Assembly: GCA_032718475.1 (NCBI GenBank)
Contig: JAUCBJ010000246.1
Location: forward strand, 11,370-75,369
From: Nemertoderma westbladi
Lineage: Eukaryota > Animalia > Xenacoelomorpha
Direction of reading: 5' to 3'
Length of the DNA: 64,000 nucleotides
Made by a program: the position numbers and the translations under genes. The notes under the pieces are model-generated. The model searched no databases, was not told where the DNA came from, and worked only from the letters and a program-made list of their open reading frames with translations. Below, piece by piece: positions 9,797-55,813 of this stretch. Positions within the stretch are counted from its first letter, which is position 1. Each line of letters begins with the position of its first letter.

Positions 9797-10227
9797 AACC
9801 CGGAAGGACTCGGAAAGTCGTTCGGTGCCAGTCCGGCGGTAGAGGAGCTATTCGATATACCCCCCATCGATAGGAATGTCCCATGATCCCGGCTAGAATC
9901 GAACTCAATTCACTCCACCCTAATATCAAATTTACTGTAGAACAACAAGACTCACTTGGAAAACTCCCCTTTCTTGATGTACTTATAACCCCGAGCCATT
10001 GCACTTACAGCACTACTGTATATCAGAAACCGACATATTCCAATAGATATTTAAATTTTGCCTCAAACTACCACCCACGTATTATACAAGGTGTCTGTTC
10101 CGGTCTTTTCTACCGTTCCAACCGTATTTGTTCAACACCACAAGCAAGAAACGAAACCCAAACTACATTAGCTAACACTCTACGTAATAACGGTTACCCG
10201 CCCCATATTATATACAGTACACAAAGA
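9797..10227 (+). mobile_element. Penelope-like RT C-terminal fragment plus one 105-bp repeat unit (copy of 54603-55033)
   Basis: LNSLHPNIKFTVEQQ...LPFLDVLI...TVYQKPTYSNRYLNFAS; near-identical to the copy at 54.6-55.0 kb, including the junction. Confidence 0.85.
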
Positions 10228-10317
10228 TCTATCAAAATCTATCCAGCATACAATCACGTCCGGGAGCCAAAAATAGGTGTTACCCATTAGGAATAAATTC
10301 CCAGGATTATCAGGCAT

Positions 10318-15900: not shown

Positions 15901-16642
15901 CTGTCGTGCGGTCCCTGTGAGTGGGGTATTAATAAATGTATCCACGGCCCCTGGCTCCCCTAGAATACTCGAGCCAGTCCCGCTCTCAGACGCCCCCGCC
16001 CGCACCCTTTGCAACTCGTGCGCGCGTCTAATCCTATGTTCCGAAAGCTCACTTTGGCGTCTCTCTAATTCCTTCTGCTCTCGCTCAGCTTCTGCCATTC
16101 TCCTCTCACACTCCCGCGCGTCCTGGCCAGCCAACTCTGCTACTCTCCTAGCGCTCTCCCTTCGTCTCGCTTCACGCTCTCTGCGTTCACTTTCCTCCCT
16201 CGCCTCACGTTTCTCGCGTTCCGCCTCATGTTCCTTTCGTTCACTTTCCTCCCTCGCCTCACGTTTCTCGCGTTCCGCCTCACGTTCCTTTCGTTCACTT
16301 TCCCACTTCGCCTCACGCTCCTTGCGTTCACTTTTCTCTCTCACCTCACGTTTCTCGCGTTCACTTTTCTCTCTCACCACACGCTCCTCTTGTTCCTTCA
16401 ACTCTATTTCATCATACTCCCTAAGGCTTCTCAAAGCCCTTTCGGCCTTCTCTCCGGTTTCTCTAATCAATGGCGCTTCCCTCTCTAGCCGCATTCTCCC
16501 CTCCTCTAGCCGTTTATCCATTTCCCTCTGACCTTGCTCTATCAGCTCGAGACGGTACGCGGCACCTGCCTCTCTCACCAGTCTTTCTTTCGCGGAGGAT
16601 GTAGCAGACTTATCGGTCACGACGGACTCCCTTCGCCTCCCC
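12928..16642 (-). pseudogene. gag: Element B gag, distal part (charged repeats, Asn-rich tract, DUF1759-like capsid, knuckles)
   Basis: ORFs 15856-16791, 14163-15887 and 12928-14271 are joined by frameshifts in poly-C runs; PFKFDGSRPEEYLQFRRMY...YLQVYTGGPA...LDREYG; CQLHANALHQTMNC. Confidence 0.85.
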
Positions 16643-17181
16643 TGTGACGGGATCCGAGAGTATCCCGGTTTATCCGGTGTTGTTTCGTACGCGTCCCCGC
16701 CGTGTGAATGAAAGAAAAGAGTTTGTCGTTCTTCCAGTGTTATTGATAATATGTATATGAGATAGACGGAGTAATGCAGTAATGATAGCACAGTATACCG
16801 GTAGTGATATGGTAGTATATATTGGTGACGGCGGTGATGGTCTTAACTGTCACCGTTCTGCCTGACTGTACTGAGATGACTGAATGGGTATTGCATCGAC
16901 CGGTAATATATATTGCACGGTGGCCTTATAACTCTACCTAGCCGATGCCTTCCCCCCATTGGCTAATATCCCTGTTGGCACCCTTTGGAGTGTTTCCCTT
17001 CACTCCTTGTGTTCTCTCTCGGTTAGGGGTTTGGCCCCTGACCCTCCATTGTGTGTTTCTCCTTCCCTTCCCACTTTATTGGGGTGACACGAGGTTGATA
17101 TTGGTAATCAACCTCGTGCTCCCAATATTGCTTAATGGCTCACTCTATGGGTTTGTGTTAGCGGAATTGGATAAGCTAACA
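16643..17181 (-). repeat. 3' LTR of element A
   Basis: Matches 23745-24283; only difference seen by eye is 16661 T versus 23763 G. Confidence 0.95.
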
Positions 17182-17219
17182 CTCCCCCCCATGCTATCTT
17201 CCCGGTAAGAAGATAGCAT
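17182..17219 (-). promoter_or_regulatory. Polypurine tract preceded by an 11-bp hairpin
   Basis: Minus strand ATGCTATCTTC-TTACCGG-GAAGATAGCAT-GGGGGGGAG|TGTTAGC. Confidence 0.85.
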
Positions 17220-23682: not shown

Positions 23683-23744
23683 CTTCGTCTTCTGTGTTCT
23701 GTCTGTGTCTGGCAGTTACAGTTCGGCAGGCCTAGAGTTAAGAC

Positions 23745-24283
23745 TGTGACGGGATCCGAGAGGATCCCGGTTTATCCGGTGTTGTTTCGTACGCGTCCCC
23801 GCCGTGTGAATGAAAGAAAAGAGTTTGTCGTTCTTCCAGTGTTATTGATAATATGTATATGAGATAGACGGAGTAATGCAGTAATGATAGCACAGTATAC
23901 CGGTAGTGATATGGTAGTATATATTGGTGACGGCGGTGATGGTCTTAACTGTCACCGTTCTGCCTGACTGTACTGAGATGACTGAATGGGTATTGCATCG
24001 ACCGGTAATATATATTGCACGGTGGCCTTATAACTCTACCTAGCCGATGCCTTCCCCCCATTGGCTAATATCCCTGTTGGCACCCTTTGGAGTGTTTCCC
24101 TTCACTCCTTGTGTTCTCTCTCGGTTAGGGGTTTGGCCCCTGACCCTCCATTGTGTGTTTCTCCTTCCCTTCCCACTTTATTGGGGTGACACGAGGTTGA
24201 TATTGGTAATCAACCTCGTGCTCCCAATATTGCTTAATGGCTCACTCTATGGGTTTGTGTTAGCGGAATTGGATAAGCTAACA
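23745..24283 (-). repeat. 5' LTR of element A
   Basis: TGTTAGC...GTCACA on minus strand; TATA (~24014) 31 nt upstream of a TCAGT initiator (~23983). Confidence 0.95.
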
Positions 24284-24288
24284 TCCCC

Positions 24289-24981
24289 GTCCTACTAACT
24301 TTCCCCCGCTTCCCGGAACTTCCTCCGACCGACGAGGCCGAATCCTCGGGGTTAACCTCGGATTCGCCCCCTTCAGGTCTGTTCCAACCCACTAATTTTA
24401 TACCCCGGGCATCGACCAAGTATGGCCCTATGTACACTGACGCTACGCTAGGTTCCATACTCCCACATTCCCATAGTTCGAACAGTTCACTGGCAACCCC
24501 TTTCGCTCTCTCCTCGGCTAGTTCTCTCTGCCCGAAGCGCATCAGATAATATAAATGTCTGTCCGACTTACCTAGTCCTGACTTTAGTTTTACCTCGTCT
24601 ATCGTCTTCCCCTTTCTGGCCTCGTCTAGTAGTCTCCGGGTCGCGTTGTAGGCCCGTCGAAGTCGCTCAGAAACCCCGACGTCCTCGTCGCCGACCTCTC
24701 GTCCGTCTCTCCGGGTTTGACGTCGTACCGGCGGACCCACCGTCGCCGTTTCGGTGGCCCGTTCGTCGCCCTCGGCCTGTGGCTGGCCGGCGACACCAGT
24801 GCGTCGACCCCCGTCCCGTGTCGACTCGTCTCCGTTCCAGGCCCCCCTCGTCCTGAACTGCCGGATGACCCGTTACCGATGGGTCCGGCGTTGTGGGCCT
24901 GTATCGCCTGGTTGTGGCCTCGCGGATCGTTAGCTCTTCGTCCGGGGTCCGCGTCGGTGTTATCTCTCCCGACTGACTCAT
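24289..24981 (-). pseudogene. gag: Element B gag, N-terminal part
   Basis: MSQSGEITPTRTPDEELTIREATTRRY... homologous to element A MSRGGEATPPRTPDDDLTIREATARRY; ORFs 24667-24981 and 24234-24740. Confidence 0.85.
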
Positions 24982-25064
24982 CTCGGTTGGTGATCGGTGG
25001 AGTTCAGCTAGCTAGGGCAGCAGTTGTTGCAGTTTAACTAGGGCAGCAGCTCGGTTTTAGTTAC

Positions 25065-25603
25065 TGTGACGGGATCCAAGAGGGATCCCGGTTTATCCGT
25101 TGTTAGTTTACGCGTCCCCGCCGTGTATAAAGAGTGAATGAGTTTGTACTGTCCGTCGTATATAATATTTAGGTATACAGATATAGATATAGATGTGAGA
25201 TAATATTGTTGTATATGGAAGGCGGGATACGGTAACTAAAGTCCCGGTCCTTCCCTAGCTAAACTATGTAACCTAAACTAGCACCAGTATTGCACTGAGA
25301 TAACTGAATTGATATGATTACTGCCAAGTGGCTATATTGCACGGTTGGCCTTGTTACTCTACCTAATCGATGCCTTTCCCCCCTCTGATTGGTTGATACC
25401 CTTGTTGGCGCCCTTTGGAGTGTTCCCGTTCACTCCACCTGTTCTCTCTGGGTTAGGGGTTTGGCCCCTGACCCTCATTGTGTGCTTCTCCTTCCCATTC
25501 TTATTGGGATGGCACGAGTTGGTTAATTACCCAATCTCGTGGCTCCCAATATTGCTTATCGGCTTAACTTTATGGGGTGTTAGCGGGATTGAATAAGCTA
25601 ACA
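25065..25603 (-). repeat. 5' LTR of element B
   Basis: 539 bp with the same termini as the A LTRs and a diverged middle; TATA (~25336) 31 nt upstream of TCAGTT (~25305). Confidence 0.9.
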
Positions 25604-25864
25604 CACTGTCTAAGTCGCCGAGCACAACTTTGCGATCATACGCGCCCTCCCGGCGAATAGTCTTTGAAGCAGGGCCCGAAAACCCACTGCCACTACCCCC
25701 GGTACGCGACCAACTCGGATGAAGTTCACGGCTTTCTCTACCATGGCAACCATGAGTATGATGCCAATGATAACCGTATCGGTTGGGTCAATATTCCGAT
25801 CCGATCCGGAAAGTACCAACTCCTGGAGAGTGATGCGGCATCCTCTCAATCGCGCTGCAGGAGC

Positions 25865-25992
25865 TGGTGCTTGGTCCCGTACTGGTCCTGGGTTCTGTAC
25901 TGGTGCTGGGTCCCGTACTGGTCCTGGGTTCCATACTGGTGCTGGATCCCATAATGGTCCTGGGTTCCGTACTGGTGCTGGTACTGGTGCTG
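25865..25992. repeat. Short tandem repeat of ~18-bp units
   Basis: GGTCCCGTACTGGTCCTG / GGTTCTGTACTGGTGCTG variants. Confidence 0.8.
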
Positions 25993-26016
25993 TAAACGTA
26001 CCTAATTTACATACGC

Positions 26017-26670
26017 ACTATTGTGGGCACTGAGGGCGCCACGTGAGGAGTTGAGGGAGGGTATGCACGCATACCGTGGTGGAAGGGTACACAGTACCGA
26101 AAGTACGTAACAACGTACTATTGTGGGGCCTGAGGGCGCCACGTGAGGAGTTGAAGGGGAGCTATGTACACATACCGTAGTAGAATGGTACATAGTACCA
26201 TAAGTATATAATACGTACTATTGTTTGGCACTGAGGGCGCCATGTGAGGAGTTGAGGGGAGGTATGTACGCATAGCGTAGTAGAAGGGTACACAGTACCG
26301 TAAGCACATAATAGGTACTATTGTGGGCACTGAGGGCGCCATTTGAGGAGTTGAGGGGAGGTATGTATGCATACTGTAGTAGAAGGGTACATAGTCCCAT
26401 AAATACATAATATGTACTAAAGTGGGCACTGAAGGCGGAACGTGATGACTTGAGCACTAGAGCACTTGATGTACGCATACTGTAGTAGAAGGGTACACAG
26501 TACCATAGTGAGGATTAGGAGGGATATATATTGCGTACGTCTGATGGGCACAATGTGCCAACGTACGTAATAAATACCAACACAAGCCGGGTCAATGGGA
26601 CCAATAATTATACGTAATCCGTACGTACAATAGTGGGCATTGAGGGCGCCACATGAGGAGTTGAGGGGGA
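26017..26670. repeat. 100-bp tandem array (5 units plus 1 detached)
   Basis: TTGTGGGCACTGAGGGCGCCACGTGAGGAGTTGAGGG variants at ~26021, 26121, 26221, 26321, 26421 and 26631. Confidence 0.88.
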
Positions 26671-27201
26671 TATGTAGGCGTGGTAGGATAGACCGCACGA
26701 ACTAGACTACTGTAGCGCATAGCCCGTAGTGCAGAGTTAGAACATTGCTACAGAGCCAGAAAGTTGTCTGGTAGGAAGCTAGTACAAGAGTAAGTTACAA
26801 AGTATTGTAGCTAGTCTTATCTGTAGACAAGTAGTGATGAATTACTTACATAGTAATTGAGTAGTAGATAATGTAATAGCATGTCAGTTGAGGTTGGGGA
26901 GTGAACACAGCACTGAAGAATCAGTTTACGCCCCATTTTTTATGATTTTGTCACGTTTGATGCTGACCGATTACTTCAATTTCTATAACAGGACGCAATT
27001 TTTTTGAGTCTATGGTTGTGTTGTCTGTATGAAACCGAAAAGGTCGAACCTTACCGTGCCACTTGGTACATAATTATTACATAGATTTAAATTTAAAACA
27101 AAAGATAAATGCTAATTAGGTACCTATAAATATTTATTTGCAGTAATGACACTCGTTGAAACCCTGTGGCCAATACAACACATGCTGCAATTCAATGTGT
27201 A

Positions 27202-27827
27202 GTGAAAGTAAAGTAAAAAGTTCGAATAAATTTCACCTTTAACAAATTATGTTATTTAAATGAAAATAACCTGTTAAAAACCTAAAATCTTTTTGCTAAT
27301 GATAGGAACCTAATTCGAGTCTAATAGGGTTAGTGAATTTTTTCATCTCATTTTTGAATAGGTTTAATTATTGTTTTAAACTATAAATTAAAAAACTTAC
27401 TTTTTGTTGCTCTCCTGTGAAGAAGAGCGATGTAGAAGAGCGAATTTCAGACCACCTTTACGAAAAGCAGGCAATGCATGAACAAGTTGCGATCGACCTA
27501 GACAACAGTAAAAAGTGAAAGTAAAGTAAAAAGTTCGAATAAATTTCACCTTTAACAAATTATGTTATTTAAATCAAAATAACCTGTTAAAAACCTAAAA
27601 TCTTTTTGCTAATGATAGGAACCTAATTCGAGTCTAATAGGGTTAGTGAATTTTTTCATCTCATTTTTGAATAGGTTTAATTATTGTTTTAAACTATAAA
27701 TTAAAAAACTTACTTTTTGTTGCTCTCCTGTGAAGAAGAGCGATGTAGAAGAGCGAATTTCAGACCACCTTTACGAAAAGCAGGCAATGCATGAACAAGT
27801 TGCGATCGACCTAGACAACAGTAAAAA
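27202..27827. repeat. 313-bp tandem duplication at the truncated 5' end of the Sola1-like transposase
   Basis: 27202-27514 is repeated at 27515-27827 (GTGAAAGTAAAG...GACAACAGTAAAAA). Confidence 0.92.
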
Positions 27828-28755
27828 ACTAGCCTCTGGTATAGAGTTAATGACGTTTGACCTGCAGAAAGTCTTGTCTACTCCAATGGGTGACAATATG
27901 TTGCTTGGCTATTCGCGCAAATTGGCAGTCTACAATCTGACATCATTTCTAAGTTCTAATAAAGCTGGGTACTGCTATATTTGGAATGAAACGATAGCTA
28001 AGCGTGGATCAATCGAAATAGCGTCTTTTATATACGACCAACTCCTTCGACTTGATGATATGGGAGTTCAGAATATCATTGCTCATTGTGATTCATGTGG
28101 TGGCCAGATCCGGAATCGTATGGTAATCGCGGCTGTGCTAACCTTCATGTACATAGCCAAACAAGTGACTAGTACCATCATCAAGTTTTTAATCCCTCGC
28201 CATACCTATCTTCAAGCAGATAGTATCCATGCCACTATAGAAAGGGCTTATAGTAAGCAGATTGTCTATGCTCCATCTGAATGGCCTGGTATTGTGGTGC
28301 GTGCTAGGCAATGCCCATGTCCCTATGAGGTGGTTAAAGTCACTAAAGACCACGTTCTGGATTGGAAGAAAAGTAGTCTCCTCTACCCTCTTCTACATTG
28401 CGACACGGGCAAACCGAAACCTAAGAAGATTCCGTGGGCAAATATTCGCGCACTTAAGTATGAGAAGGGTATAGATGGACACATAGCTGTGTCATTCACT
28501 ACGACATTTTGCAACAATGCGACATGGAAAACTATGAAATCAAGAAAGAATGAGAGGGCTAATCCACCTATTCCACCGAAAGCATATTCAAAGCAATTGC
28601 CCATATCTGCTGTGAAGAAGAAAGATCTCATGGATCTTTGCAGTAATGGGTTTATACCGCAAATCTTCCATAACGAATATGAAGCCATAACAACCAGCAT
28701 GGATGTTCCTGATGAACTGGATGAGACGGATGTGGAGGATGTGACTGACGATTGA
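27730..28755 (+). CDS. DDD transposase catalytic region, Sola1-like, 5'-truncated
   Basis: FDLQKVLSTP, YSRKLAVYNL, CYIWNETIAKRGSIEIAS, DSCGGQIRN, HTYLQADSIHATIE, KKKDLMDLC...FHNEY; superfamily call from recalled motifs. Confidence 0.75.
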   Translation: MKKSDVEERISDHLYEKQAMHEQVAIDLDNSKKLASGIELMTFDLQKVLSTPMGDNMLLGYSRKLAVYNLTSFLSSNKAGYCYIWNETIAKRGSIEIASFIYDQLLRLDDMGVQNIIAHCDSCGGQIRNRMVIAAVLTFMYIAKQVTSTIIKFLIPRHTYLQADSIHATIERAYSKQIVYAPSEWPGIVVRARQCPCPYEVVKVTKDHVLDWKKSSLLYPLLHCDTGKPKPKKIPWANIRALKYEKGIDGHIAVSFTTTFCNNATWKTMKSRKNERANPPIPPKAYSKQLPISAVKKKDLMDLCSNGFIPQIFHNEYEAITTSMDVPDELDETDVEDVTDD

Positions 28756-28959
28756 AAGCTGAATATACAAACTAACTTGTGTTTATATTGGTTGTTACGT
28801 TAATAATTGGAGTGGGTATAGAATCTAAGAGTATAGAAGCTAAGTTGTGTGTGTTAGTTATACTAATATACCTTAGTGTTATATTAATAGAAACGGTTAT
28901 ATTTTGGATAAACTAAACAACCTTAGAAAAATCAGCTTGCCTAATTTATATACATTTCA

Positions 28960-29383
28960 GTGACCCCAAAAGGCATGTTACCAAATAAGAATAAAAATGA
29001 ACTAAATAAGATAAATAAATTAATAACAACTTCCAATAATAATACATAAATAAATAAATACGTCATTCCGACTGAAATGATTCAAGTATCGTAAACGTGG
29101 GCAGATCGGTAATGATTCTAACACAGTAATATATACTGCCAAAAGGGCATTCACAGTTAAATTGTGGAAACTCCATTCAGGACAAAAGGGCATTTGACCA
29201 TGCCATGTCTTCTGAAATGTAAAAAATGTATTTTTGATACAAAAATCCGAAATACGACAAAGCAAATACACTATGTTGACATAAAAAATGTAAGGATGGT
29301 CATTCTTTTCAATTTAAGACGGTTATTTGGCTCTCCTGAAAAGTGGCATTTTGGCTGAATGCCCTTCTTCCCGCTCACCGACG
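28960..29383 (+). repeat. Putative 3' subterminal repeats and terminus of the Sola1-like element
   Basis: Repeated AAAAG(G)GCAT motifs (~28968, 29141, 29184, 29340), ending GAATGCCCTTCTTCCCGCTCACCGACG. Confidence 0.45.
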
Positions 29384-29384
29384 A

Positions 29385-29573
29385 TGTATTTTATCAATCC
29401 CCTCTCCCCCTGTCAAAAACTATAACACCGGGGACAGACACAGAAACTATAACTAAAACACGGGGGGGGGGGGAGGGGTCGAGCTTGCTTGACACTTTGT
29501 GGCAGAGGGGGGGGGGGGGGGGGGGAGGTCAAACAACTGGAAAATTTGCGTGACATACTTTATGAACGCCCCC
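29385..29573. mobile_element. One end of a MITE
   Basis: Terminus reads GGGGCGTTCATAAAGTATGTCACGCAAATTTT on minus strand, with poly-G tracts; resembles common invertebrate MITE ends; partner end not seen. Confidence 0.45.
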
Positions 29574-29605
29574 ATAACTAGTAAACTTATGTTTTATCAT
29601 TTTAG

Positions 29606-30807
29606 ATGGAGAAATACTGTGTTATACATGGTCGATACGCTCGGCGGGCGTCACTCGCAGACGTCATCGACAACCCGCCGGTCATGGAGGGCCACCATAT
29701 GGCGGCAATGGTCATAAGTGAAACTTGCGCCGTAAAGAAAAATAAACCGGCACTAACTTCTCAGCCGCCAGCAAAGAAGGCCAGGGCGTCTTCATACCAT
29801 ACGCTGGCCTTCCTACTGTAAGTAAAAATTATTACTATTACTGATACTAATGATAATATTTTTTTCAATATTCGCAATATGTGACATTACTACCAAAAAT
29901 AACACGAATTAAAAAACAATAATCAATTGAAATTATGTATATTAATACATGAAGTTACTAATTTGGTGTTGTTCAAACTAAATCCTATTAAAAATACAAA
30001 TATTGATTACCTGCTAAAATTAAATTTACACTAACTACATTATAATATTATATTTTAATAATTATTTTTAGCGATAATAATGCCTTCTAATGAGACGTTC
30101 TCGAAGCTCTTCCCACTCCACGCTGATTCCGAAAAGTTTTTCGAGAATGGGATAGGGGTGGGGACGTTTATCGTCATCCTAGAGCCGGGGTACCGTGGGG
30201 GGTCGACGACACATCTTCCCGCCATAGTATCCCGGCTCAGTCCGGTGCACCTTAGGGCAGCCCCCATATACCCTGAGCATCCCTCTAGATTGGATGAAAT
30301 CAGTAAATCGGCAGAACTGGCGGGTTTCTGCCTTGAAATCCCGAGACTGACTTTATCCACGGTTTGTGTTGTTGTTAATATTATTTCTCATTTGTAAATA
30401 AATATTAATAATAATTATTATTTTTCTAGATAAGTTTGTCAATTTCTACTACATATATTTTTAGCACCAAATTAAGCAGAATTGCTTTTATTACAAAAAA
30501 AATAATGACTTTCCTAAACAATAAGCAATATACATAATCAAAATAAATAATGAATAATAATAAATCTCATTTATAAATATTGTATTTTTTAGATTATATT
30601 GAAGAAGGTGTGTGGGGGCAACTTGTGCCGAGGATTAAAGGGGGCGGCCTGCCCTTGCTACCGGAGGGGGTTGAAGGAGACATGGGTCATCGAAGGGGAC
30701 ATCCGCCTGCCAGCGATTTGGGATGCGGAAAAATAAGAAGGTGGAGCCCTACCCATTTTCATCGCGGTATTTTACCGCGATGTTTCTGAATAGACATCAA
30801 CAAGGGG
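29606..30807 (+). pseudogene. Degraded spliced gene for an unknown Cys-containing protein
   Basis: GC-rich blocks 29606-29817, 30072-30361 and 30593-30807 bounded by TTTAG and GT within AT-rich introns; blocks 2 and 3 join in phase (RLTLST|IILKKVCGGNLCRGLKGAACPC); frameshifts present. Confidence 0.45.
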
Positions 30808-32069
30808 TAGGCATTTTAATATTCAAATTGATAATAAAATTTGCTAATTAAAAAATATAGAAAACCTTAACTAATCATTTACATACAGAACTTACACTAT
30901 TGCACTTTTTAATTAATTGATAGTAGCAATAATAAATTGAAGAACACCACGTTTGTAAGATATAAAAAATAGGCTACAATAAAGTCATACCAAAAACAAT
31001 TATTCAACACCAAAATAAATAAATGCTTTTTGGTGAGAAATATTCAAAATTGGGGGATGTAAATTGGTGCTCCAAAAAAATATATTTTGTGCTAAATAAT
31101 TTTTTTGGTGTGAAATCATCTAATTTGGGGTTACAGTCAATTAGTTGCTTAAAAATATGACATTCCCGTGAAAATATTGTTAAAAATAATATAATTATTG
31201 ACATTTTATTACATTTCGCAATATGCAAAAACGTAATACTCTAATGGCTATTATTATATTATTAAAACGTAATATTTGGATAATTTAGATTACAAATTTA
31301 GTTTCAATATTTATATTTCAAATATTATTTACATTTTCAGTCGATTAGGGATTTGTCGACAGCGCAAACGTTCGCAGTTAGTCGGTCGGTCATGCCCTAT
31401 CGAAATTATTTAGTAAAACATGACATGTATAATTTTAATAAATAATGATCCTTCAATCCTTCCCTTTCCAGAATCCAATAGTCCCTGTGCGCCCACCTTC
31501 GGGAGCCAGCTTTCCGGGGCGACAAGTCTCGGGGGTTCATCCCCATTATAGAAGTTCAGCATCCCACAATCGCAATACCCGGACCAACGGCGGTAATGTT
31601 TCTGCGATACATTGTGGTCTACTCAGAGGAGTTATCCGGCTTCAGTATTAATGTTCCTCAAGCCTGTCATACAGCAGTGAAGTGCATTATTAGTGTAGGA
31701 TCAGCCAGTTTGCAGTTCTGATTAACGATCTTCCATGGGTGACCAGGAAGAACTCCTTGAGCCTGAGCTAACAGCGTTCGACGAAGATTGCAATTTGCAC
31801 TGCTGAAATCCAGTTCTCTTTGCGTCCGTGGTGGTCGCAGATCTTGGCGTGGACTTGGGTTTGGCGATGGGGCCGGTCTTCGTGGACGAGACATAACGAC
31901 ACAATACTAGCCCATGGTCGAGCTGTTGAAATCCACATAAACTAATGCATTACACATAATACTGAAATACTCTATTGATCAACTCTTTCTATATATTTAA
32001 TTTGGTTGTGTTAATTTTGGTTATTAATATTTGTTCATATTATATTATATTATATTATTAAATAAATAT

Positions 32070-32172
32070 AAATTATCAGATAGTGATAGGTGTTATATAC
32101 GACAACACATCGAGTCTTTTCCATCATTTCCATCACACTATGCTCGCAAAGGTACAAACAGGCTATATTGTA
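32070..32172 (+). pseudogene. Small Sola1-like transposase N-terminal fragment
   Basis: YIRQHIESFPSFPSHYARKGTNRLY matches the recalled HIxSFPxxxSHYxR motif. Confidence 0.55.
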
Positions 32173-33772
32173 CTCCCTCCTCGCAGACCAGTATAGTTCT
32201 TTGTCGGAATCGGAACGATTTCGTTTCGACATTAAGGTCAGAAGGTTGTCCTTACTTGTCTTACATTCATCGTCGTACCATTGCTGGTGGTGGTTCTGAT
32301 TGTTTGATGGCTTGTGCTTTGCCGCAGTTGATATTACTTCGTTAAGAATTGCTGTACCTGTATGCTAAGGTCGCTTACTTTCGTCGCTCGCCCCACAATG
32401 GTTAGTAAATGTTTAATTTACTATCAAAGATCTTAAAAAAGTAGATTTTTTTAGCTTTACAACAACAGACCGTACCAACAAATAAAAGATATTTTTAATA
32501 AGAGTAATAAAATAATAAGTAAAAATTAACAAAATAGTTGTGAACACGTTCCTTTCTGTTCTTTTTTTACGAATCTATTACTTAATTTACTTCATATTTA
32601 ATAATAATGTTTAAACTTTATCGCGAAGAAGAACCGGCTATTCCTATCGCGCTGGGGATACTACCATTGGTAGGCTCCCATGGTTGCAAATTAGAGATCT
32701 TACAGTTTTTCGTAAACATGCAGTTCTTAACTTAAGTAGCGACGGGAGGTTTTGGGTCAAACCCATAAGCGAGAACGCTACTTTTTTTCAAAAAAAATGG
32801 GGAAGAAGCCTTCCACGTCTTGGAGAGAAACTGTTGGAAAGAACTCAAGAATAAAGATAAAATATCTTTATTACCACCACCACCCCATACCTTTACAATT
32901 TTACGTACTGATATGGAGAGTGACGAGGATATTTTCTTTTATTCCATCAACAGTGATGAGAGGGATGAGACTTTGTTCTGGATGAACAGGAGGCGTTGGT
33001 TGAGAATCGATCTGAATCCGAAGAAGTGGTGGATAACTGTTCAGAATCAGGCGACGTGGACAACCGTCCTGAGTGCATGTATGGCACTTGATGTATGTCT
33101 TTTAGTATGGAACATATGAAAAACTTTTAAACATACTCAGCCTCCACCCCCTCCGCCGATGAGTATTTAGTACTGTTGCTACGTTTGTATAATATTGTAG
33201 CTATTGTAGTATATGTTTTGTAGTACATATACATTGAATATATGTGGTGGTTTAATTACAATTAATAATTGTATAATATATTTATTTTGAGTACCTTGCG
33301 CTCCTACTGCCCCCCTTCCAACACTGTGATTAACTTTATAGCAATATGTTAATTAAGCAATGTCAAACAATAAAATAAATTACAATAGTGTCATTGACAG
33401 TGGCACTTTATCATCTATTGTTTTGAGGTTATTGAAATGTTAAGTTATTAATTAAAGTTTAAGTTACCAATCGTAACCAGGTTGTAGGAAACTCTAATCT
33501 GTTAACTTTTAACAGAAGTAGCGAATATAATTACAATTTATTCAAATCCGATTTATTATTTTTAGTGCTACAAGTATTAATACTTGTATGAGAAAACATT
33601 ACGTATAATTAATTTATTTATTTTTAATCAGTTAAATTATAATAAAATTGTTATTAAAAATGTACTATATATTATAAAATATATTGCAAAATAAACACCG
33701 GTTTACAAATATTACATAAAGATCAGTTTACACTTTTTGTGATTATATAATTTATTTTGTTATAGGAATAAT

Positions 33773-35017
33773 TGTAAAAGCTTTTGTGGGATAACTGATA
33801 CGTTTGCCTTTGCTGGCCAGTTCCCCCCAGGCGCTGGAATACTCTAAAAAGGTTTTCTAACTGTATATAGATTCCCCTCGCCCGCAAGGTACCTTTACAG
33901 GTGTTTTAACGGACATAAAAATCATTCTGCTATATACGTGTTTTGGCGGACATGGTAAGGCAAAAAACCTGTAATGCACCAACTACCTTTCACAGCTTAG
34001 CCGTGATAATTCATATTACGACATCTAACAGCTGGTTGCTGACATGGAAACAGCCATTGGATGTATGGTTCTTTGTTTGGCTTGAGCCAATCAGAGCGAT
34101 TTTTCCTGTCGACGTGTAGCTTTTAGTCGATCATAAGGAGAGTGTTCAGTCTTAAAGTTTCTTACTTGATACTTTGTTGTTATTGCTGTCTAAGCCAGAA
34201 ACACCGGCCTTTCGGTAAGAACTCTAGTAAACTGCTTGAATTATCGAGAGTATAAACTGTTACCTTAACGAATCGAACCTTAACGCATCTTAACATACTT
34301 ACTTAATTTAATTGCATTAATCATATTGTTTGTACTGTTATTTTACCGTCAGTTATTAATTGTACCTATTTGTTGATGGAAATATTGCTCTTTGGATAAT
34401 ACGGATAAATCACCCAAATTCCCAATTTTCTTGATACACTACAGGTTAGAGAGACCGGTTATACATAACAATTGCGATTTATATTAATGTGGTGTGTATT
34501 GAATCCAATGTTATTTAGCAGACCCTACGTGAGTCAATTACTGCTCTCTTTATGTGTGATCAAATATACTGACTGTCGGCAGAATAGTGTGTATGATCGT
34601 GATTGGTAACAAAGTATTTCCTAAAGAATACGCTTTATACTTTAATCATAAGCAGTATCGTTGCGTTTTAGTATAAGTCTTAGTTCTGTTTAAATAGATA
34701 AAGTGCCACGTCCTAAAGGAACTGTTAATATTTCCCGAAAGCCAATAATATCTGTCAGAGATTAATTTATTAACGATCTATCGAATGGTATAGTAGGTAT
34801 ACACTGCAACCTTACACTGCAATAATAAAATTCAAGCATCCGAATTCAGCCTCCCGGGTGTAGATCCATCGGGTGAATGATCGCGCATGGGCTGCCTTCG
34901 GCTAATGTTTTGCGTATTAGCATAAAATATTGTCGTATGCTAAAGTGGTTTTAATTAACTAAAAGACATATAAATTTTGGCAGGTTAAACTGCTAAAGGT
35001 CTTCAAAAGCGCGAACA
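33773..35017 (+). repeat. 5' LTR of element C
   Basis: TGTAAAAGC...GCGAACA; two substitutions versus the 3' LTR seen by eye. Confidence 0.96.
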
Positions 35018-35310
35018 GTAACAGTTTATAATCTTATTGCAGTAAGCAATAAGGTTGCAAAATACCGTAGTGACCGGTAAACCTGAACCGGTACTTCTGT
35101 AAGTCAGTAGGCCTAACTGTCATCACCGGTACCGGTACTGCTGTACAAGTACATTAGTATTATTCGATTTTGATTGTTGTATACCGGTAGGTCTTGGTAC
35201 TTAATCAGGGAACGGCCGCCCTGATTTTTTATTTGAGATTCTACTTATTTCTGTCGGTTTTATTTACTAGTAGGCTAATATTGAGCAGAAGGCGTGTGAC
35301 CCTGCTCAGA

Positions 35311-35884
35311 TTGTTCAGATAATTGTAGGCTGAGCTGCTGTCTGACTGTTGTTGAGTTTGGAGAGATTGCGGTGTGTGTAGAGTTTGTCTGATAAAGTGC
35401 CGTTAGTAAGTTGGGGCAGCCATAAGCGGTAAGGTCAATCCCCTCTTAAAGAATAAGTCGTACTACCGTGTTAGAACGCATACTAACTAACAGTTTCAGA
35501 GTCTGCATATACCGTAGTTTATTTAGGCTTGATCGTAGTCTGCCAGTGTTTCAGCCTGTGTTTGTTTGTGTGGTCTGTTCAGGTACCGTAATAGTTATTA
35601 TTCAAATATTTGTAGGCTGGATTGTTGTCTGGCTATTTTTGGGTCTGAAGGGATTGCTGCGTGTGTAGAGTTGGTCTGATCAAGTGCCGTTAGTAAGTTG
35701 GGGCAGCCATAAGCGGTAAGGTCAATCCCCTCTTAAAGAGTAAGTCGTACTACCGTGTTAGAACGCATACTAACTAACAGTTTCAGAATCTGCACATACA
35801 GTAGTTTGTTTAGGCTTAATAGTAGTCTGCCAGCGTTTGGTTTGTATTTGTTTGAGTATTCTGTACGGGTAGCGTAATATTTAT
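35311..35884 (+). repeat. Two tandem ~287-bp units in the 5' leader of element C
   Basis: GTGTGTAGAGTT...AAGTGCCGTTAGTAAGTTGGGGCAGCC... at 35374 and 35661. Confidence 0.85.
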
Positions 35885-37198
35885 TATTCAGAGTTTATGC
35901 GATTATTCGCAACATTCATGTCCCCAAGTTTATTCCTACAGTAATTGTGCTTGTTATACATACCGTTATAGTTAAACTAACCCCGGTACTACATCAGGGC
36001 TGCTTGGCGTAGGTAAAGACTGACGACTTTGTGCTTCGGTCACTCCAGCAGATGCCGTGGTTCTTTTAACTGTTCAAGTATATTTAACTACTGATTATTT
36101 GTTATACCGGTACTTGTACCTAATTTAGGGTTTAGTGTACAGTGCTTTCCGAAGTAATTAGTGTAGGCAGTATATTTGTATTGTAAAGTGGTTGATAGGC
36201 ACATTCGTTAGCTCTATTAGCTTCTGGGTAGGAACAATCCGTGATACATAACGTAGTACCTATAGCGATACGGTTATAGGTCGTCAGGCGGTGGTATTTT
36301 CCTATCTGGACAACGCAGTATATTTACTACTACTTATTATTTAAATACCGTAGTACCCTGTCCTTTGTAATAACCAGAAATCTAACCCTTTGTTGGACTG
36401 GTTTGTAGACTTCCTGTAAAATTACCCTAAAAATTTCGTACGTAATATTTTGTTGTGTTTAATTAGAGAATTAATCTCACCCGTATCGTAAGTAATTTGT
36501 AGTATTAAGTAACTTAGGTAAATTAGAATTATCAGTTTTAGTGTCAAATAAATAGCACTTCACTTAGAGGCGTTCAGCTTCTGTGTAGTGACTCCCCCAG
36601 AAATAATAACATTTATTTCAAATATTGACAAAACCCATTTAAACGGGTATATAAATATTATAAATCAACTCAAACGATTTATAAATAGTAGGCCTGCCAT
36701 ACAACAACTAGGTCTTACTATCAGTTGGACTACTGCTTAAATAACGGTAATAAAGTAAGTTAAAGTAACTAAGTAACCCTAAAATATTCAGGAATTCAAT
36801 TATTATAAAAATAATTGACATACCGGTACTTACCATAGGCTTATTATATTTATTTCTATAAATTTGAGCTGAAATCATACCGGTACTCTGTAATTAATTC
36901 TAGTTCATAATTATACTTACATGCTGTAAGTGTAAGCTGTATACCGGTATTCATTATAGGCCTACTATATATATATATATATTTGTGCTAAAATTATATA
37001 CCGGTACTCTGTGACACATCTAGTCTGTAATAATACTTATATATTATAAGCATACCGGTATTCTAATATATTGTGTATATATCACGTTACACCGAGTAAC
37101 GGTACCGGTAATAAATCGCTAGGCTTGCGGTCATACTGAATTACTAGACTTGCTTTAACTGAAAATATAGTAGTAGACATTCAACTGTATAACTAAAC

Positions 37199-40100
37199 AT
37201 GTCTGACACTCAGCAAAACCTGTCGGACAGTCTGATCGATACAACTATCTGTGATTCAGATAGGAGTGTGGAGCGAATAAGAAAGGAGTTCGGCTCACCT
37301 CCTACTGTAAAAAAGGTCATCCCTCCAGTAGTATCAGACCCTAGGCTAGTCCACCATAGGTCCATCATAGGCACTAGGGCACAGGTAAAACGGGACCAAG
37401 AGGCAGTTGTCTTATCGCAGCAACATCTTGGTCAAGAACCTACTTCCCAGCGACCCGATAGCTCCAGCAGTTCGGATACTGTAGAGCTGACTCCCGAACA
37501 TGGAGTGCAGATGTCTGATACAGTCTACTCGGACCCCCTTCTTACTCTTCCTGCTGCAGTGCTAACTACTATATTCATTGCGGTGGAGGAACATCAAGCC
37601 GACTGGGCGAAGAATAAGCGAGCGACCCAAGATAATTACGCGGGATACGCCAGGGAAGAATTGATATCTATTGTTGAATCACAATGGAACTTTCCCGGAC
37701 TCGGACTTCCGTTGGATATGTCCGAGGCTACTTGGGAAGAGCTACACAGGATGGGAGTGGCTAAAGATACAATGGATCCAGCTGTTTGGAAGAGGTCGGC
37801 AGCAGGATATGTGCAGGGATTCTTCGGATCCTTAGAGCGATTGGAAGAACAACTGTTTCGACAACCTCACGGACCTCAAGAGCAGGAAGAGCTGCTATAC
37901 CAAGTACGCGAAAGAACCCTACGCATTCGACTAATCCTCTCAGCCTTTGAGGAAACTTCCAAAAGAAGACAGGACACTTCGCTGCAGGTTGCTGTCAAAA
38001 CTTGGCTACATCGGGTAGATCTCAAAGTACAGGAAACAGCCCCGTGGAAATCCCAGCTGGCTGAGAGATCAACCTATGAAGAACCAACTGATGTCACCGA
38101 ACCAACTGATGTCACCCGTGCTCAAGAGGAAAGCGAAGAGGCCGCCGAGAAACCGCGAACTAGAGACGCTATCGACATTTATTTGTCCGACTATCAGCGA
38201 TTCCTAGGAGACGAAGAGTTGAGGAGACGGCTGTCTGGACTTTCCCCTAATAGTGAAGGAACCAAGCTTGTGTTGGACTCAATCGATGCCGAAATGTTAG
38301 CTGCAAACCAAGCTGAATGTGATGAAAAACTCCGCCTCACTAGAGTCCGAGAAGAACAAATAAAGAAAAGAAGGATAGAGGAACAAAAAACGGCGGCTAT
38401 GGCGGCGGCTATAGCAGATGCAGAAGCAGAAAGTAAAGCAGCAAAGGCGGTGGCAAAGGCAGATGCAGAAGCAGAAAGGAAGGCAGCGGCTGCAGATGCA
38501 GAAGCAGAAAGAAAGGCAGCGGCTGCAGATGCAGAAGCGGAAGAAAAAGCAGCAAAGGCGGTGGCAAAGGCAGAAGCAGAAGCAGAAATGAGAGCATTTG
38601 AGCAGACTGCTCAACTGGAGTTGGAGAATCTGCAAGAGACACAAGACAGTATAACTAAACAGTTTACTGCTAATCAAATGCAGATGATGAGAAAATCTAC
38701 TCCCAAGCGCCAGGGGTACACATCCTCGGAGGAAGGCGATACTACCGACCCTGAAGGCGGAGGAAATAGATCCCATCTAAGTAGACGTAGAAAAACATAT
38801 TACCGTCGCAAATTGCCTGATTTGCCCCCAGCTGTTAAAAGACAGCTAACTAGCACAGATTTAGGTAGTGCAGAACCCATGGAACAATTTATCCAGGTCA
38901 AAAGACTCCCTACTATAGTCGATGAACCTGAAATAATTAGGCCTGTAGTTCCCAAAGTCACTTCTGTGCTAGAGACCCCTACACTTCCAGAGCTTAACTC
39001 TAAATTCCCTTTACATAGCACTACACTGCCTGTACCCGGTGGAACAGTCCATGCAAATACCCCTGTCCAGATAGCAGAGAGAGAAATCAATAATTTGTCT
39101 CCCGTCGTCCCGCGTCAGCCCGCTACTATGTTGGCGACTCCCGCTTCGGCGGTTGAGTGGGTGGAAGAGGGACGGCGGGGGATGAATCTTCTGCTAGGAC
39201 AGATGCAGGAGACTGTCCACCAACTTAAGGGAACAGTGAGGGAAGGTAGAGCAGAGTTGCAAGAAGTGCAGCAAAGTATCGCGCTAGAACGCGACAAATT
39301 AGTCAATATACAAAAAGGCATACCAATGCCTCCTGTAACATTGTGTCAACCCGTTAGGTCTGAAGTATTACATGCGCAAGGTGTGGAGCCTACACGCATC
39401 TATACTGCTAGTGAAGTTGAAACTCCTATAGCAAACCCTATTAAGGGTGATTATAGACCTGTTATTAATGATATTCCCTATAAACCTGATAATGATCCGA
39501 GAAATTTATATACCGATAATTCGATATTAAATAACACGATGGCCCAAGAAAGCTTTACGCGTCAGATGGCTAGAACAGAAGCCCGCCAAGCGGTCAAAGT
39601 GGGAGAGATCGTCAAATTCAATGGAGATGAGATGAAATGGTTACCTTTCAACGAATATTACAAAGATAGCATACAGAACTCTGTACTATCTAACGGAGAG
39701 AAACTTAGATTCCTCATCAAGTGCTTGGAAGGACCTCCCAAGTTAATGGCGTTAAAGTTTATTGGACATCCAGAAGGATTAAGACAAGTTTGGGATACAT
39801 TAAACATCAGGTATGGTAACAAAGATAACATAGCTAAGTATTTGTATACAAAGTTAGTAGCCCCCCGACACTTCCTTAGTAGTGGGATTATAGAGTTTTC
39901 CGATGAAATACAAGAGATCTGTAGACAACTGGACTGGTTAGGTAAGTCGCACGAATACCAGAGTTCCATGGTTATTGGAGCCGTAGTCTCTACTTTACCA
40001 AAGGGTGGAGTATGTACACGCTGGGACAAGAAAGTGTTGTACATGAATGAACAACAACGACGAAGTCCTACCATGGCTGATCTCATGTCTTTCTTAGATG

Positions 40101-43100
40101 GTTAAGTCAAATTACAACTCATCAAGCAGTCCAGAGAGAAAACATCGGAAAATAAGGTAAGTGAGAAACCTACTTCTAGGAGAAGAGTAACACCGGTGTG
40201 TTACACTGACGACGGCGAAAGCCAAGCTTCCCAAGAAGAGGACAGCGGGAAAGATACAGACAGATCGTATTATGTTGACAAAACCTCCAAGGACGTAAGT
40301 AAATACAAAGCTCGAACCAATAATAGGAGAGAACAAGTTACTAAGACCCCTCCTCAGTCTCCTAACAGAATGCGCGGAAGAAAGCCCGAAGAAAGAACGA
40401 GAGTGCATCAGACTACCCAGGGTAAAGTAAGTAACATAAAACCTAACTGTGCGCTGTGTGACGGGACCCACCGTTTGAGTGCGTGTGCGGAATTTCTAAA
40501 GAAATCCCTTGTAGACAGACGTACAGTTGTGTGGGACAAGCGGTTATGTTATAATTGCCTCAGACCAGGACACCAACGGCGAACCTGTTACTCCGACATA
40601 AAGTGTGAAAAGTGTGGTGCGAAACATCACATCTTGTTACATAGTGAGTTCGAACGAGACAAGCCGAGTCAGGTAAGTGAGTCCGAACTACATGTCCAAT
40701 TCAGTGATGTAAACGACACTGATCAGGAGTCTGAGATGGAGGGATTTTATACTGACGAATTCTCCGACGTCAATGAATCCTGTTATCTAATAAACACCAC
40801 GGTGTATCGAGCACTTACTTACGAAAAGGATATCAGCGAGGAGTTTCCCCCTACTACTTTTACCAAACAATCATCTTGGAAAGCTCCTACTTCCAATGTA
40901 GGAATCAGAGAATTTCCTGTAGTTCAGGTAAGAGTTCATGGTATTAACAAAAGCTACATAGTGAACGCCCTACTTGACTCAGGCAGCACAGGAACATTCA
41001 TAGATCAAGAGCTAGCCGAAGATATCTTTGCTGGACAACCCAAGTTCCGGACTAAATTGAATATGTCAGGAATTATGCAGGTTTGGAAATCTACCCTGAC
41101 GGCAGATTACTATGTAGGTGAGTTGTCCACCCCCCAGGATAAGTTAGGAACACAAGGTGTAAGGTCAGTAAAAATGGTGGCTATAAAGAACTTTGCTACT
41201 ACTCAAGCAGACCTTTATAATTGGGACGAAGATGAGAGCGTCCAACATCTTAAGATACCTCGATTCCAGACAGATTATCCTGGAGTGCAAATACTTATCG
41301 GCCAAAACGCGCACGAGGCGCTCGAAACATTAGAGAAACGGCCTGCTCAACCACAGCCACTGCAAACTTATGCGGTAAGAACTAGAGTAGGTTGGTACTT
41401 TACTGGCCCTTCCCGTAGAACTTTAGAAGAAAGAATGCCACACGAACAAATAGATCAGGTAAGTGATTGGGAAGAGGAAAACAGCGAAGTGGACGAACCA
41501 ACTGAGGGAACCCCATACTCCTCAGATAATGACGACATCTACCAACTCTTCGAAGAAGAGAAGACAATTGACCTACTTACCGAAAACCAAACTTGGAAAA
41601 ACCAAACGAACCTATGTCAATTGATTCGCCCAACGGAACCCACTATTTATAATGACGAACTTAATGACGAGGTAGAGCGCTACAACGCTAGAACTCGGGA
41701 CGAACTCGCCGTACGATTCTTTACCCAAGAATTGGTAGAACCCAATTCATACGACAAAGCCCTGTCGATAGAAGAAGAAAGAGCCAAGCAAATCCAGGAA
41801 ACAACCACACGTTTTTTAAAAGATCAAGGTAGATATGAAATCGGACTACCCTTCCGAAAACGTGAACCCAGATTTATAAATAACAGACCCTTGGCTGAGA
41901 AAAGAATCAATCAATTACATCGACGTCTGACGGCAAACGCTTCAGCTAAGGAAATGTACCAGACTCAGTTGAAGAAATTTATCACAAAGGGATATGCGGA
42001 GCGAGTACCGGAAGGAACTCCCATAACTGAAAGGACTTATTATCTAACACATCATTATGTTCCCAAACCCGGTAAACCCCATGAAGTACGGGTTGTATTT
42101 GATGGCTCCGCCCTATATATGGGCCAATCCCTTAATTCCGAGTTGTTACCAGGACCCAACTTGCTCCAATCTTTGTTGGGGATACTGTTGAGATTAAGAC
42201 AATATTCCATCGCGTTCGCCTCCGATATAGAAGGAATGTTCCTACAAGTCAAGGCGTTGGATCGTGATAGAGACAGCCTAAGATTCCTGTGGTGGCCTGA
42301 AGGAGATCTCAACCAGACAATTTAAAGTCCCTTCCATCAGTAAAGGAAGCCATTGATGTCGCGAAAGGGATGGTTGAGTGTTTGAAAAGAGGTGGATTTC
42401 GGTTGACGAAGTTCACCAGCAACTCCCGTGAGTTTCTGGAAGCAATATCTGTAGAAGACCGGGGGTCAAAAGATCTCGACTTAATACATGATGATCTTCC
42501 GGAAACCAAGACACTTGGCTTGAAGTGGGACACAGAAAGAGACATCCTGTTTTTTCAGTTAAAACAGCGAGATAATCCAGTTCGGACCAAACGGATTTGT
42601 TTAAGTATTCTGAGCACTTATTTCGATCCCTTGGGATTTATTAGCCCAGTTATATTGATTGCTCGGAGTTTAGTACAACAAATGTGGCTGGAAAACCACT
42701 CGTGGGACGATCCACTCAAGGGAGAACTATTAAAGAAATGGATGAAATGGGAGGATTCGCTACCTGCCATCGAGAACTTTATAATTTCCTGTTCATATTT
42801 TGGTCATGTTCTCCCTACGTATTCCTATCAACTCCATGTATTTGGAGATGCCAGCGATATGGGGATCGGTATCGTAGCATATCTGCGAGTCGAAACTCCG
42901 GATGGAATCAAAGTTGCCTTGGTTACCTCTAAGGCATTGATTAACAACAAGCTTAAGGTTCCTCGAGCGGAGTTAAAAGCAGCATTATACGCTACCGCTA
43001 TCGGACGGAATGTAACAGAACAGATCGATTATCCACTGGAGAAAACCGTTTATTGGACCGACGCTTTACTTGTATTGGAATATATAACGAATGAAGTCTG

Positions 43101-45192
43101 TCAGTTCAGCGTCTTTGTTACTAACAGAGTGGCCATTATTCTTAGTCGCACAACGATAGATCAATGGAGACATTGCCCTGGTACGATTAACCCAGCTGAC
43201 ATCGCCTCCAGAGGAGCAACTCCACAGGAACTGATAGATACCCCTGACTGGTTGGGTGGACCCGACTTCTTGAGCAAGGAAGAGGATGAATGGCCTCCTC
43301 ACCTTACTACGGCTGAGATTAGACAAGCCAAGGGAGCGGAGAAAGTCAAACCCAAAATTCGGACAAGTAAATCGAAGTTATTTAAACCTACAATCGACCT
43401 ATCTGTACTACATACTGCCGAGAACGATACTTCGGATCCACAATCCCTCACCACAAACAAATCTGTTGTGGAAATTAGAGATAGAAATTGGAAATCTGAG
43501 ATACCAGACGTCTCGCAAGGAATCTCACCCCTGCTGCAGAGAGCACTGCATCATTACAGTTCCTGGAATCGTCTCTGTAAAGCTATCACATACTTAAAGA
43601 GATGTTTTCACCATCATTACTCCAGGAAGAAAACCACTAGTGATCCTGCTCCGGTAACATCTGCGCAAGTTCATGTTATTAAAGATCTACCTAAGTACAA
43701 GATATCAGACCGGTTTCTAAAGGAGAAGATCAGCTACCAGGAGCATGAAGAAACTAATAAGCAGATACTGAGACTATTGCAATGCTATGAGGATTCCGAT
43801 AGGTATTTTCTGCTATTAAGAAATCCGCAGATGCGCTTAAGGGATCGCTTCTCTAGCACAATGATAGATGGGTTAATACGCGTTGGAGGAAGACTTACCA
43901 ACGCTCCATTATCTTTTGATACTAAATTCCCTATACTCATTAGTAATCTTGAAGTACAAATCAAGATGATTGTAGATGTTCACAGTAAACTGTATCATGC
44001 TGGTAGAGAACGAGTTCTTAGCGAGATTCGAACCCGCTATTATTTTCATAAACCACGTAGAGCTCTGAATCAAGTTCTTAGGAACTGCATACCTTGTAGG
44101 AAAGTATTCAGTAGGCCTTTAACACAGCGAGAGGCAGAATTACCTAGGGAACGAGTAAGCTTTTATGAACCACCCTTTACTAATACTGGTGTGGATTTAT
44201 TTGGCCCTATTGAAGTATATCGTGCTAGAACTATAATCAAGAGATGGTGTGTAATCTTTGTCTGCATGACTTGTAGAGCTATCCATCTCGATATGGTGAA
44301 CGATCTATCTACTAACAGCTTCGTCTTATGTCTACGACGACAGATCGCTCGTTTCGGCACTAGCAATACGATGAGATCCGATAAGGGAACGAACTTCATT
44401 GGTGCCAACAACGAAATCCAGGCTTACGTAAAGGACTGGAATCAAAGACAGGTGGATGACCAGCTACGGATAACGGCGTCTAGCTGGACCTTTAACGCCG
44501 CCGACGCCCCTTGGTGGGGAGGAAGTTGGGAGAGATTGATTCGAAGTGTCAAGACCGCATTTCACTTTATAGTGCCGTGCCGCGCATATCTCACCGACGA
44601 ACTTCTACGGACGTTAATGGAAGAAATCGCTGCCTATCTTAACGAGAGACCGCTTATGCCAGTCTCATCGAGTGTCGACTCCCTGGAAGCGCTAACACCC
44701 TCGCATTTCCTACTTAAGAAACCTGTAGCCATGCTCCCAAAATCCGAGATTGCCGACGGAGATGAATACTGTCGTCGAACTTGGCAGCTTATGCAGTTGC
44801 TATCCCGTCGTTTCGCTGACCATTTTGAGAAACATTATCTGCCCACGCTACAACTTCGAACTAAGTGGTTTGCGCAGCAGGAAAATGTCAGCGCCGGAGA
44901 CATGGTCCTTATTGTAGATCCGGACCTCCCACGTAGACGGTGGCAGATCGGTCGTATCATCGAGACGCACATCTCGGAGGATGGTCTAGTGCGCTCAGTA
45001 GAACTCGTCGTAATGCGGCGTAACTTCAAGAAACCCGGAATAATCTTTGAGACGCAACAACTCAATCGCCCAGTTGGTCGTTTATGTTTGCTGGAAAGAG
45101 ACAGAGAACTCTCCGGAAACTATGGAAGACAAGACACTCTTCCCACGACCACCTCCCTAATACCTCAAACATCTAGGGACTCCCAAACGTGA
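37199..45192 (+). pseudogene. pol: BEL/Pao gag-pol with an in-frame stop and an RT deletion
   Basis: Capsid (KFNGDEMKW...LIKCLEGPP), three CCHC knuckles, protease LLDSGS, RT RVVFDGS...SDIEGMFLQV, RNase H FGDAS...WTDA...NPADIASRG, integrase GVDLFGP/SDKGTNF/GGSWERLI. TAA at 40103-40105; frameshifting deletion at ~42322. Confidence 0.95.
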
Positions 45193-51063: not shown

Positions 51064-51141
51064 CTGTTTAGAGTATTTTTATATTTTAGAAACTGTGATT
51101 TTGTATATTTTATAGACTTAAATCCCATTTTCTGGGAGCGG

Positions 51142-55573: not shown

Positions 55574-55771
55574 GAAACGGAAAAAAAAGGGGGGGGGGGG
55601 GGGTGGGGTATTTTCGTATGTATGTAGGACTTAGTACTGTTATTGTAGTACAGTAGTATGTAGCAGTTTTGTCGTGTGGTCTGTGCGATTTTGTGCCATT
55701 TCACTATTTAATATGCAATTTCCATTATTAATAATTAGGTCACTTACTCCCAACTTCTGTATAGGATTATA

Positions 55772-55813
55772 TGCATTGATAATGACGGCTATTACCGTCG
55801 AAATATATATGTA
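55772..55813 (+). ncRNA. Minimal type I hammerhead ribozyme motif (U3-A8 variant)
   Basis: TGCA-TTGATAA-T-GACGG-CTATTA-CCGTC-GAAA-TATAT-A-TGTA, 200 bp downstream of the PLE ORF. Confidence 0.7.

Follow-up and report, generated by a model that had tools for sequence, protein, structure and literature searches.

Three BEL/Pao retrotransposons of Nemertoderma westbladi with candidate self-derived primers, and relatives whose primer-binding site pairs with a predicted splice junction of the long terminal repeat

BEL/Pao is one of the three large superfamilies of retrotransposons with long terminal repeats (LTRs) in animals, and its members are described as primed by transfer RNA (tRNA). For Belpaoviridae, the profile of the virus-taxonomy committee ICTV gives an 18-nucleotide (nt) site for tRNA-Arg or tRNA-Gly and calls the priming poorly understood (PMC8742986). 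Self-priming, as far as the available parts of the sources describe it, has been reported for Tf1/sushi, Tcn1 and TAR elements (PMC6317226, PMC7175516, 10.1101/2022.12.06.519325, PMC3601003). In the available parts of two papers, Tf1 primes with nucleotides 1–11 of its RNA, freed by RNase H (PMC7175516), and about half of its cDNA retains a DNA copy of the site at the 3′ end (PMC11042837). Here we describe three elements, A, B and C, in a stretch of 64,000 nt of Nemertoderma westbladi DNA (contig JAUCBJ010000246.1, positions 11,370 to 75,369; hereafter the window, whose coordinates are used throughout). By their proteins, all three are BEL/Pao elements, and they depart from the priming stated in the ICTV profile. 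Judging from their sequence, it is likely that the RNA of their own 5′ leader, and not a tRNA, primes the synthesis of their minus-strand DNA.

None of the three elements has TGG after its 5′ LTR, and the tRNA-Arg or tRNA-Gly site of Belpaoviridae is therefore absent. In element C (plus strand), the 13 nt directly after the LTR (35018–35030) are the exact reverse complement of positions 34251–34263 of the LTR, and none of 5000 dinucleotide shuffles of the LTR equaled this match. In the other two elements, both on the minus strand, the first nine bases after the LTR pair with the LTR itself: 23744–23736 with 23950–23942 in A, and 25064–25056 with 25240–25232 in B (equaled by 9 and 13 of 5000 LTR shuffles, respectively). 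Each duplex begins at the first base past the CA that closes the LTR, and the 3′ end of each putative primer reads AC|C. The three coordinate pairs, the missing TGG and the place of the duplex had been given in a first-pass annotation and proved exact on re-examination, as did its remark that the three sites differ and that each matches its own LTR (9–13 nt, versus at most 5 nt to the LTRs of the other two). Between A and B, six of the nine paired positions have changed on both strands; the two are not independent lineages, because their LTRs are related and A is nested in B. Some offsets deeper in the leader also reach 8–10 nt (10 nt within that of C), and a 9-nt match alone is therefore modest evidence.

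Host contigs were also aligned on these elements. Among the matches listed for C, no splice-type joint and no variant at the primer was seen. For A, no substitution was listed in the primer or the site, but long adjacent stretches were equally free of them, and this result was not used as support. Many host contigs match the U5 end of A through the GT after the LTR (23743–23815) and then diverge, with a loose-end agreement of 0.51–0.63 in three runs, which suggests additional host subfamilies with different GT-starting sites.

Relatives were collected with an alignment of the reverse transcriptase (RT) and RNase H of C and 30 homologues as the query. The metagenome loci analyzed were the best 80 of 523, in 40 families; 23 of these families show sequence after the 5′ LTR, and the other 17, in which the LTR end was not located, were left out. 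Scans of viral contigs gave no relatives. Among the 23 readable families, a tRNA-type TGG site was seen in one (L007), and the remaining 22 sites begin with GT and sit 0–5 nt past the LTR end. In 20 families, the site is complementary to the joint that excision of a GT-AG intron would leave in the LTR, over 9–16 nt when the intron is taken out versus 5–10 nt when it is left in place (intron length of 74–426 nt where measured on one copy). One more family (L037) has an LTR without the intron and a 10-nt match, and in L050 the exon-1 side matches and exon 2 lies beyond the contig; L007 has no junction match. Complementarity that starts at most 5 nt from the LTR end, with the polarity of a primer 3′ end, is present in 21 of the 23 readable families, and one side of it in a 22nd. 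Self-priming in a BEL lineage, as the first-pass annotation had proposed, gains support from these families, whose complementarity lies far above that of shuffled sequence. The predicted intron in the LTR, by which the primer is interrupted in most of them, had been overlooked.

Fifteen of the 20 junction families came from a blind scan, and five were found by eye. The scan covered 55 loci with enough upstream DNA (29 families) and required a match of at least 10 nt, a GTRAG donor and GT after the CA; the last two features are therefore partly built into its outcome. It returned 21 of 55 loci and 15 of 29 families, versus a mean of 0.57 loci and a maximum of 3 in 40 rounds with shuffled sources, so that relatives do show the complementarity more often than shuffles, a comparison that had been suggested earlier. 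With six decoy splice motifs or a reversed control in their place, 0–2 of 55 loci were hit. The GT-AG cut was the top match in all 20 families, five of them tied with equivalent slides. In each of the 17 LTRs read from the same copy, the matching donor was the single best of 29–55 GTs, and 13 of these 17 donors have the full consensus, common to only one or two GTs. Across families, matches of at least 9 nt were seen in 10 of 380 pairs, all of them close relatives.

The sites vary along with the LTRs. There are 20 distinct first 9-mers among 24 sites, and a single host tRNA matching them, raised earlier as a possible objection, is therefore ruled out. Sister families carry double-sided changes, for example at 4 of 14 positions for L018 and L052. 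The primer end AC|N is conserved, with C as the next base in 16, G in 6 and T in 2 of the 24 sites; AC|C thus holds for A, B and C and not as a general rule. In a later separate set of seven loci, of which four are readable, three (L082, L084 and L085) gave an 11-nt junction match, L082 and L084 with the same anatomy. The loci L081–L087 are BEL/Pao elements whose contigs had been binned with bacterial genomes and most probably represent contamination from animals.

The best evidence here for splicing of the predicted intron comes from L052 and L048, in which DNA copies, from short-read assemblies, lack exactly that intron. In L048 (112–170), an intron-less LTR copy goes on into gag with U5 and the primer site left out. 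No credible intron was found at the primer in the LTRs of A, B and C. When any GT/AG pair was allowed, hidden introns lengthened the match by 1 nt in A, by none in B and by 3 nt in C, gains that were rejected as chance; the candidate in C has a weak donor and an acceptor without a pyrimidine tract. The uninterrupted primers of A, B and C look like the state expected after loss of the intron, or one in which it was never gained. Occasional splicing of the 3′ copy could give rise to intron-less families that would still be self-priming, L037 being one case and A, B and C probably others.

The assignment of the three elements to BEL/Pao follows from their proteins. DUF1759 is present in all of them. 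The Gag of C has a triple Cys-His box (CX2CX3HX4C, CX2CX4HX4C and CX2CX3HX4H), as defined in the available part of PMC554778, and its Pol, in the order protease, RT, RNase H and integrase with Peptidase_A17 and DUF5641, is BEL-type. Because A encodes Gag and protease only and B Gag only, their assignment rests on Gag, by which both match L006 best. In a quick IQ-TREE tree of 71 rows (L060 and L064 left out), all 20 junction families and L037 fall in a 54-row clade with a value of 88 in the Shimodaira–Hasegawa-like approximate likelihood ratio test (96 for a 44-row core), and L007 falls outside. The clade also holds fish, mollusc, echinoderm, brachiopod, nemertean, bryozoan, priapulid and cnidarian proteins.

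Initiator-like TCAGT motifs were used as predicted transcription starts, a function assigned from their position. In C, the motif is at 34146–34150 (plus strand), 116 nt before the primer end. Element A has two such sites at 23972–23985 (minus strand), about 30 nt after TATATA (24014–24009), at 33 and 42 nt from the primer end, and in B the distances are 65 and 74 nt. When the leaders were folded from the initiator-like site, the core helix had a mean pair probability of 0.43 in A, 0.81 in B and 0.69 in C, and the minimum free energy (MFE) structure contained nine of nine core pairs in B and 12 of 13 in C. Pairing beyond the core was evaluated between two stretches of 45 nt, one upstream of the core and one following the site, against 500 shuffles. 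In A, the leader segment 23713–23730 (minus strand) is predicted to pair with LTR 23960–23976, which would extend the duplex to the initiator-like site (free energy of –24.7; 3 of 500 shuffles as low). In B, a predicted helix of 13 bp joins the leader segment 25031–25043 (minus strand) to LTR 25253–25265, again as an extension of the primer duplex (–35.1; 9 of 500 shuffles as low). Both elements carry a U5 hairpin plus these upstream helices. The LTR of C has two further 10-nt reverse-complement matches with the leader just past the site (34806–34826 with 35034–35059), which compete with a local hairpin and lose to it in the MFE structure. Among the relatives, the helix had a predicted probability of 0.40–0.98 in 7 of 10 families when the leader was folded spliced, and of at most 0.12 in 10 of 10 when it was folded unspliced.

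From these features, a replication scheme can be proposed. Transcription would start in the LTR, in the relatives upstream of the splice donor, and the cap-side copy of the LTR intron would be spliced out. The leader would then fold back onto the primer-binding site, a cut after AC, attributable to the RNase H of the element by analogy with Tf1, would free a 3′ end, and the RT would extend this end into U5. Plus-strand synthesis would copy the primer, so that the DNA site would be rewritten from the spliced RNA in every cycle; such copying would account for the covariation as well as for a DNA site that pairs with a joint absent from the DNA, and it also means that the covariation reflects copying as much as selection. 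The intron would survive because minus-strand strong-stop DNA would end at the cut and the region upstream would be copied from the unspliced 3′ LTR. A tRNA-primed element, by contrast, would lose an intron in R once its 5′ copy had been spliced. The first ~11 nt of the RNA are probably not the primer, whose end would lie some 35–120 nt past the predicted start. We consider it fairly likely that, in a large aquatic branch of BEL/Pao, the host spliceosome builds the primer: pairing would be limited to the cap-side LTR copy in its spliced form, so that splicing would license priming, the 3′ copy would be kept from competing and self-priming would protect the intron. Elements A, B and C would be the intron-less, splice-independent form, in A and B with a longer leader duplex.

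A primer of the same origin might also act in trans, if a short RNA transcribed from the LTR (spliced, terminated close to the poly(A) signal, or supplied by the 3′ R of a partner RNA) were trimmed to AC and annealed to the site. A poly(A) hexamer lies 11–133 nt past the primer end in 8 of 10 relatives, which makes short spliced LTR RNAs plausible, and the helix in cis is not predicted in 3 of 10 relatives or in the MFE structure of A. This explanation nevertheless seems unlikely to us, as the pairing in A and B runs from near the predicted 5′ end, as would be expected for a cap-side leader, while neither element has a canonical hexamer after the primer and that of C is 560 nt away. Moreover, the primer and site of Tf1 lie together in one 5′ untranslated structure of three duplexes, according to the available part of the source (10.1101/2022.12.06.519325).

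The probability is lower still that the pairing is structural, serving packaging, dimer formation, concealment of the 5′ poly(A) signal or control of translation, and that the primer is a different host RNA, for instance a tRNA half. A chance match to a tRNA fragment is conceivable for a single 9-nt site, and tRNA-Arg or tRNA-Gly priming is what the ICTV profile gives for the family (PMC8742986). Against this, the 20 different 9-mers each track their own LTR, the helix always ends 0–5 nt from the end of the LTR, the place required for a primer terminus, no TGG site stands there in its stead, and the site copies a spliced joint. Chance, or a functionless local inverted duplication, is very improbable and largely refuted, because, even if contiguous inverted matches of 10–14 nt do occur in unrelated flanks of some loci and offsets in the C leader reach 10 nt, the LTR shuffles taken jointly and the 21 of 55 loci versus 0.57 speak against it, and a duplication of DNA cannot copy an exon–exon joint. 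Contiguous matches of 14 nt (L060/L064, L039/L041 and L054) and of 20–30 nt (L084) were themselves rejected, as they lie away from the LTR end.

Several observations weigh against priming by the leader RNA and its splice-built form. The transcription start, the splicing, the cut and the priming are all predicted. The cores of A and B are only 9 nt long, and that of A is absent from its MFE structure. No pairing beyond the core was detected in C (87 of 500 shuffles as low), and only 3 of 21 relatives gave such pairing with fewer than 10 of 500 shuffles as low; three of the 10 relatives folded in spliced form gave the helix a probability of at most 0.02. The primer lies away from the predicted 5′ end of the RNA, and the Tf1 geometry is therefore not directly transferable. 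As for the relatives, the scan demanded GT after the CA, LTR ends are fixed by repeats in only 8 of the 20 junction families, 3 of the 5 families found by eye needed two copies or contig ends, and many of the loci may derive from few host species. In the later set, the site of L085 begins with AT at a spacer of 5, and L087 has no match, its LTR end not being independently fixed. Finally, the long branch of C leaves from an open fork next to the 54-row clade, and A and B have no RT to place in it.

The window itself is animal-type repeat DNA with several LTR elements. Element C (33773–52386, plus strand) is flanked at both ends by an ATAAT target duplication. Its 5′ LTR (33773–35017; 1245 nt, TG..CA) is identical to the 3′ LTR (51142–52386) at 1243 of 1245 positions; a purine tract precedes the latter, which holds a copy of the primer at 51620–51632. 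The gag-pol frame (37193–45192), encoding the DUF1759 Gag, the triple Cys-His box, an LLDSG protease, RT/RNase H and integrase, has an in-frame stop (40103–40105) and a break within the RT near 42301–42325. Element A (24283–16643, minus strand) is inserted inside B, with a 5-nt target duplication (16638–16642 and 24284–24288). The 5′ LTR of A (23745–24283; 539 nt) has the U5 hairpin just before its end, and its LTRs agree at 538 of 540 positions (3′ LTR at 16643–17182). Element B, whose 5′ LTR is at 25065–25603 (minus strand), runs on past A to about 12938, and no 3′ LTR of it was found in the window. Over U3 and the end of U5, the LTRs of A and B are ~80% alike.

Between pol and the 3′ LTR, in the position of env, C has an extra open reading frame (ORF) of 1423 codons (46792–51063, plus strand) with zinc knuckles. 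Pfam gave nothing beyond the knuckles, the PDB and a word search gave no match, and the predicted fold was unusable (predicted local distance difference test of 31). One distant relative (P0121, E = 5e-6) has in common with it a segment of ~170 amino acids and downstream zinc knuckles. This segment bears a tentative likeness, borne out by none of these searches, to a WRN-type 3′–5′ exonuclease.

Elsewhere in the window, a fourth BEL/Pao pol fragment, D (60388–63711), is distant from C, lacks a 5′ LTR and groups with insect sequences on a long branch. The segments 9797–12937 and 54603–60285 are a duplicated patchwork, 96–99% identical. A TGG-type primer site follows a CA end at 2178–2194, before gag-like ORFs without a Pfam match, and marks a tRNA-primed neighbor, presumably a Gypsy element with a tRNA-Gln site. 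ARAGORN found no tRNA within the window.

No report of self-priming or of a splice-built primer in BEL/Pao was found in the literature searched, which takes in few subscription papers and neither the original articles on Suzu and Tf1/sushi nor Repbase Reports nor any supplements. Primer sites are not discussed in the available parts of PMC554778 and PMC3118150, and PMC8233318 and PMC11117352 contain nothing on them; the literature searched offers no precedent for a primer that splicing would make. If the proposal is true, a self-priming branch of BEL/Pao would be a further origin of tRNA-free priming, with replication tied to host splicing. It would explain why introns persist in LTRs and why, in such elements, annotation based on tRNAs fails to find a primer site. 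As fish, mollusc and echinoderm elements fall in the same clade of the tree, public genomes and RNA data should allow the proposal to be tested.

Compared with known systems, the elements resemble Belpaoviridae in their Gag, triple Cys-His box, the order of protease, RT, RNase H and integrase, their LTRs and their purine tract, and differ from them in that the tRNA site is absent from A, B and C and from 22 of the 23 readable related families, L007 having one. The plant Tcn1 chromoviruses and the TAR copia elements (Houba and Osr-1) are similar in that self-priming was likewise predicted from LTR complementarity, but they are plant gypsy and copia elements, and no splicing step is described for them in the available part of the source (PMC6317226). 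In priming, the likeness is to Tf1 and Tf2 of Schizosaccharomyces pombe and the Tf1/sushi chromoviruses, which, according to the available parts of the sources, use no tRNA, have a site by the 5′ LTR complementary to ~11 nt of their own R, need a cut and form flanking helices (PMC7175516; 10.1101/2022.12.06.519325). Those elements belong to the Ty3/gypsy superfamily, whereas the Pol here is BEL-type and no chromodomain was found by Pfam. The Tf1 primer is nucleotides 1–11 of the RNA, whereas here the primer would end ~35–120 nt past the predicted start, and in most of the BEL/Pao relatives a predicted spliceosomal intron interrupts it. The additional helices also differ in place, being predicted upstream of the primer in A and B, while those of Tf1 use LTR sequence downstream of it.

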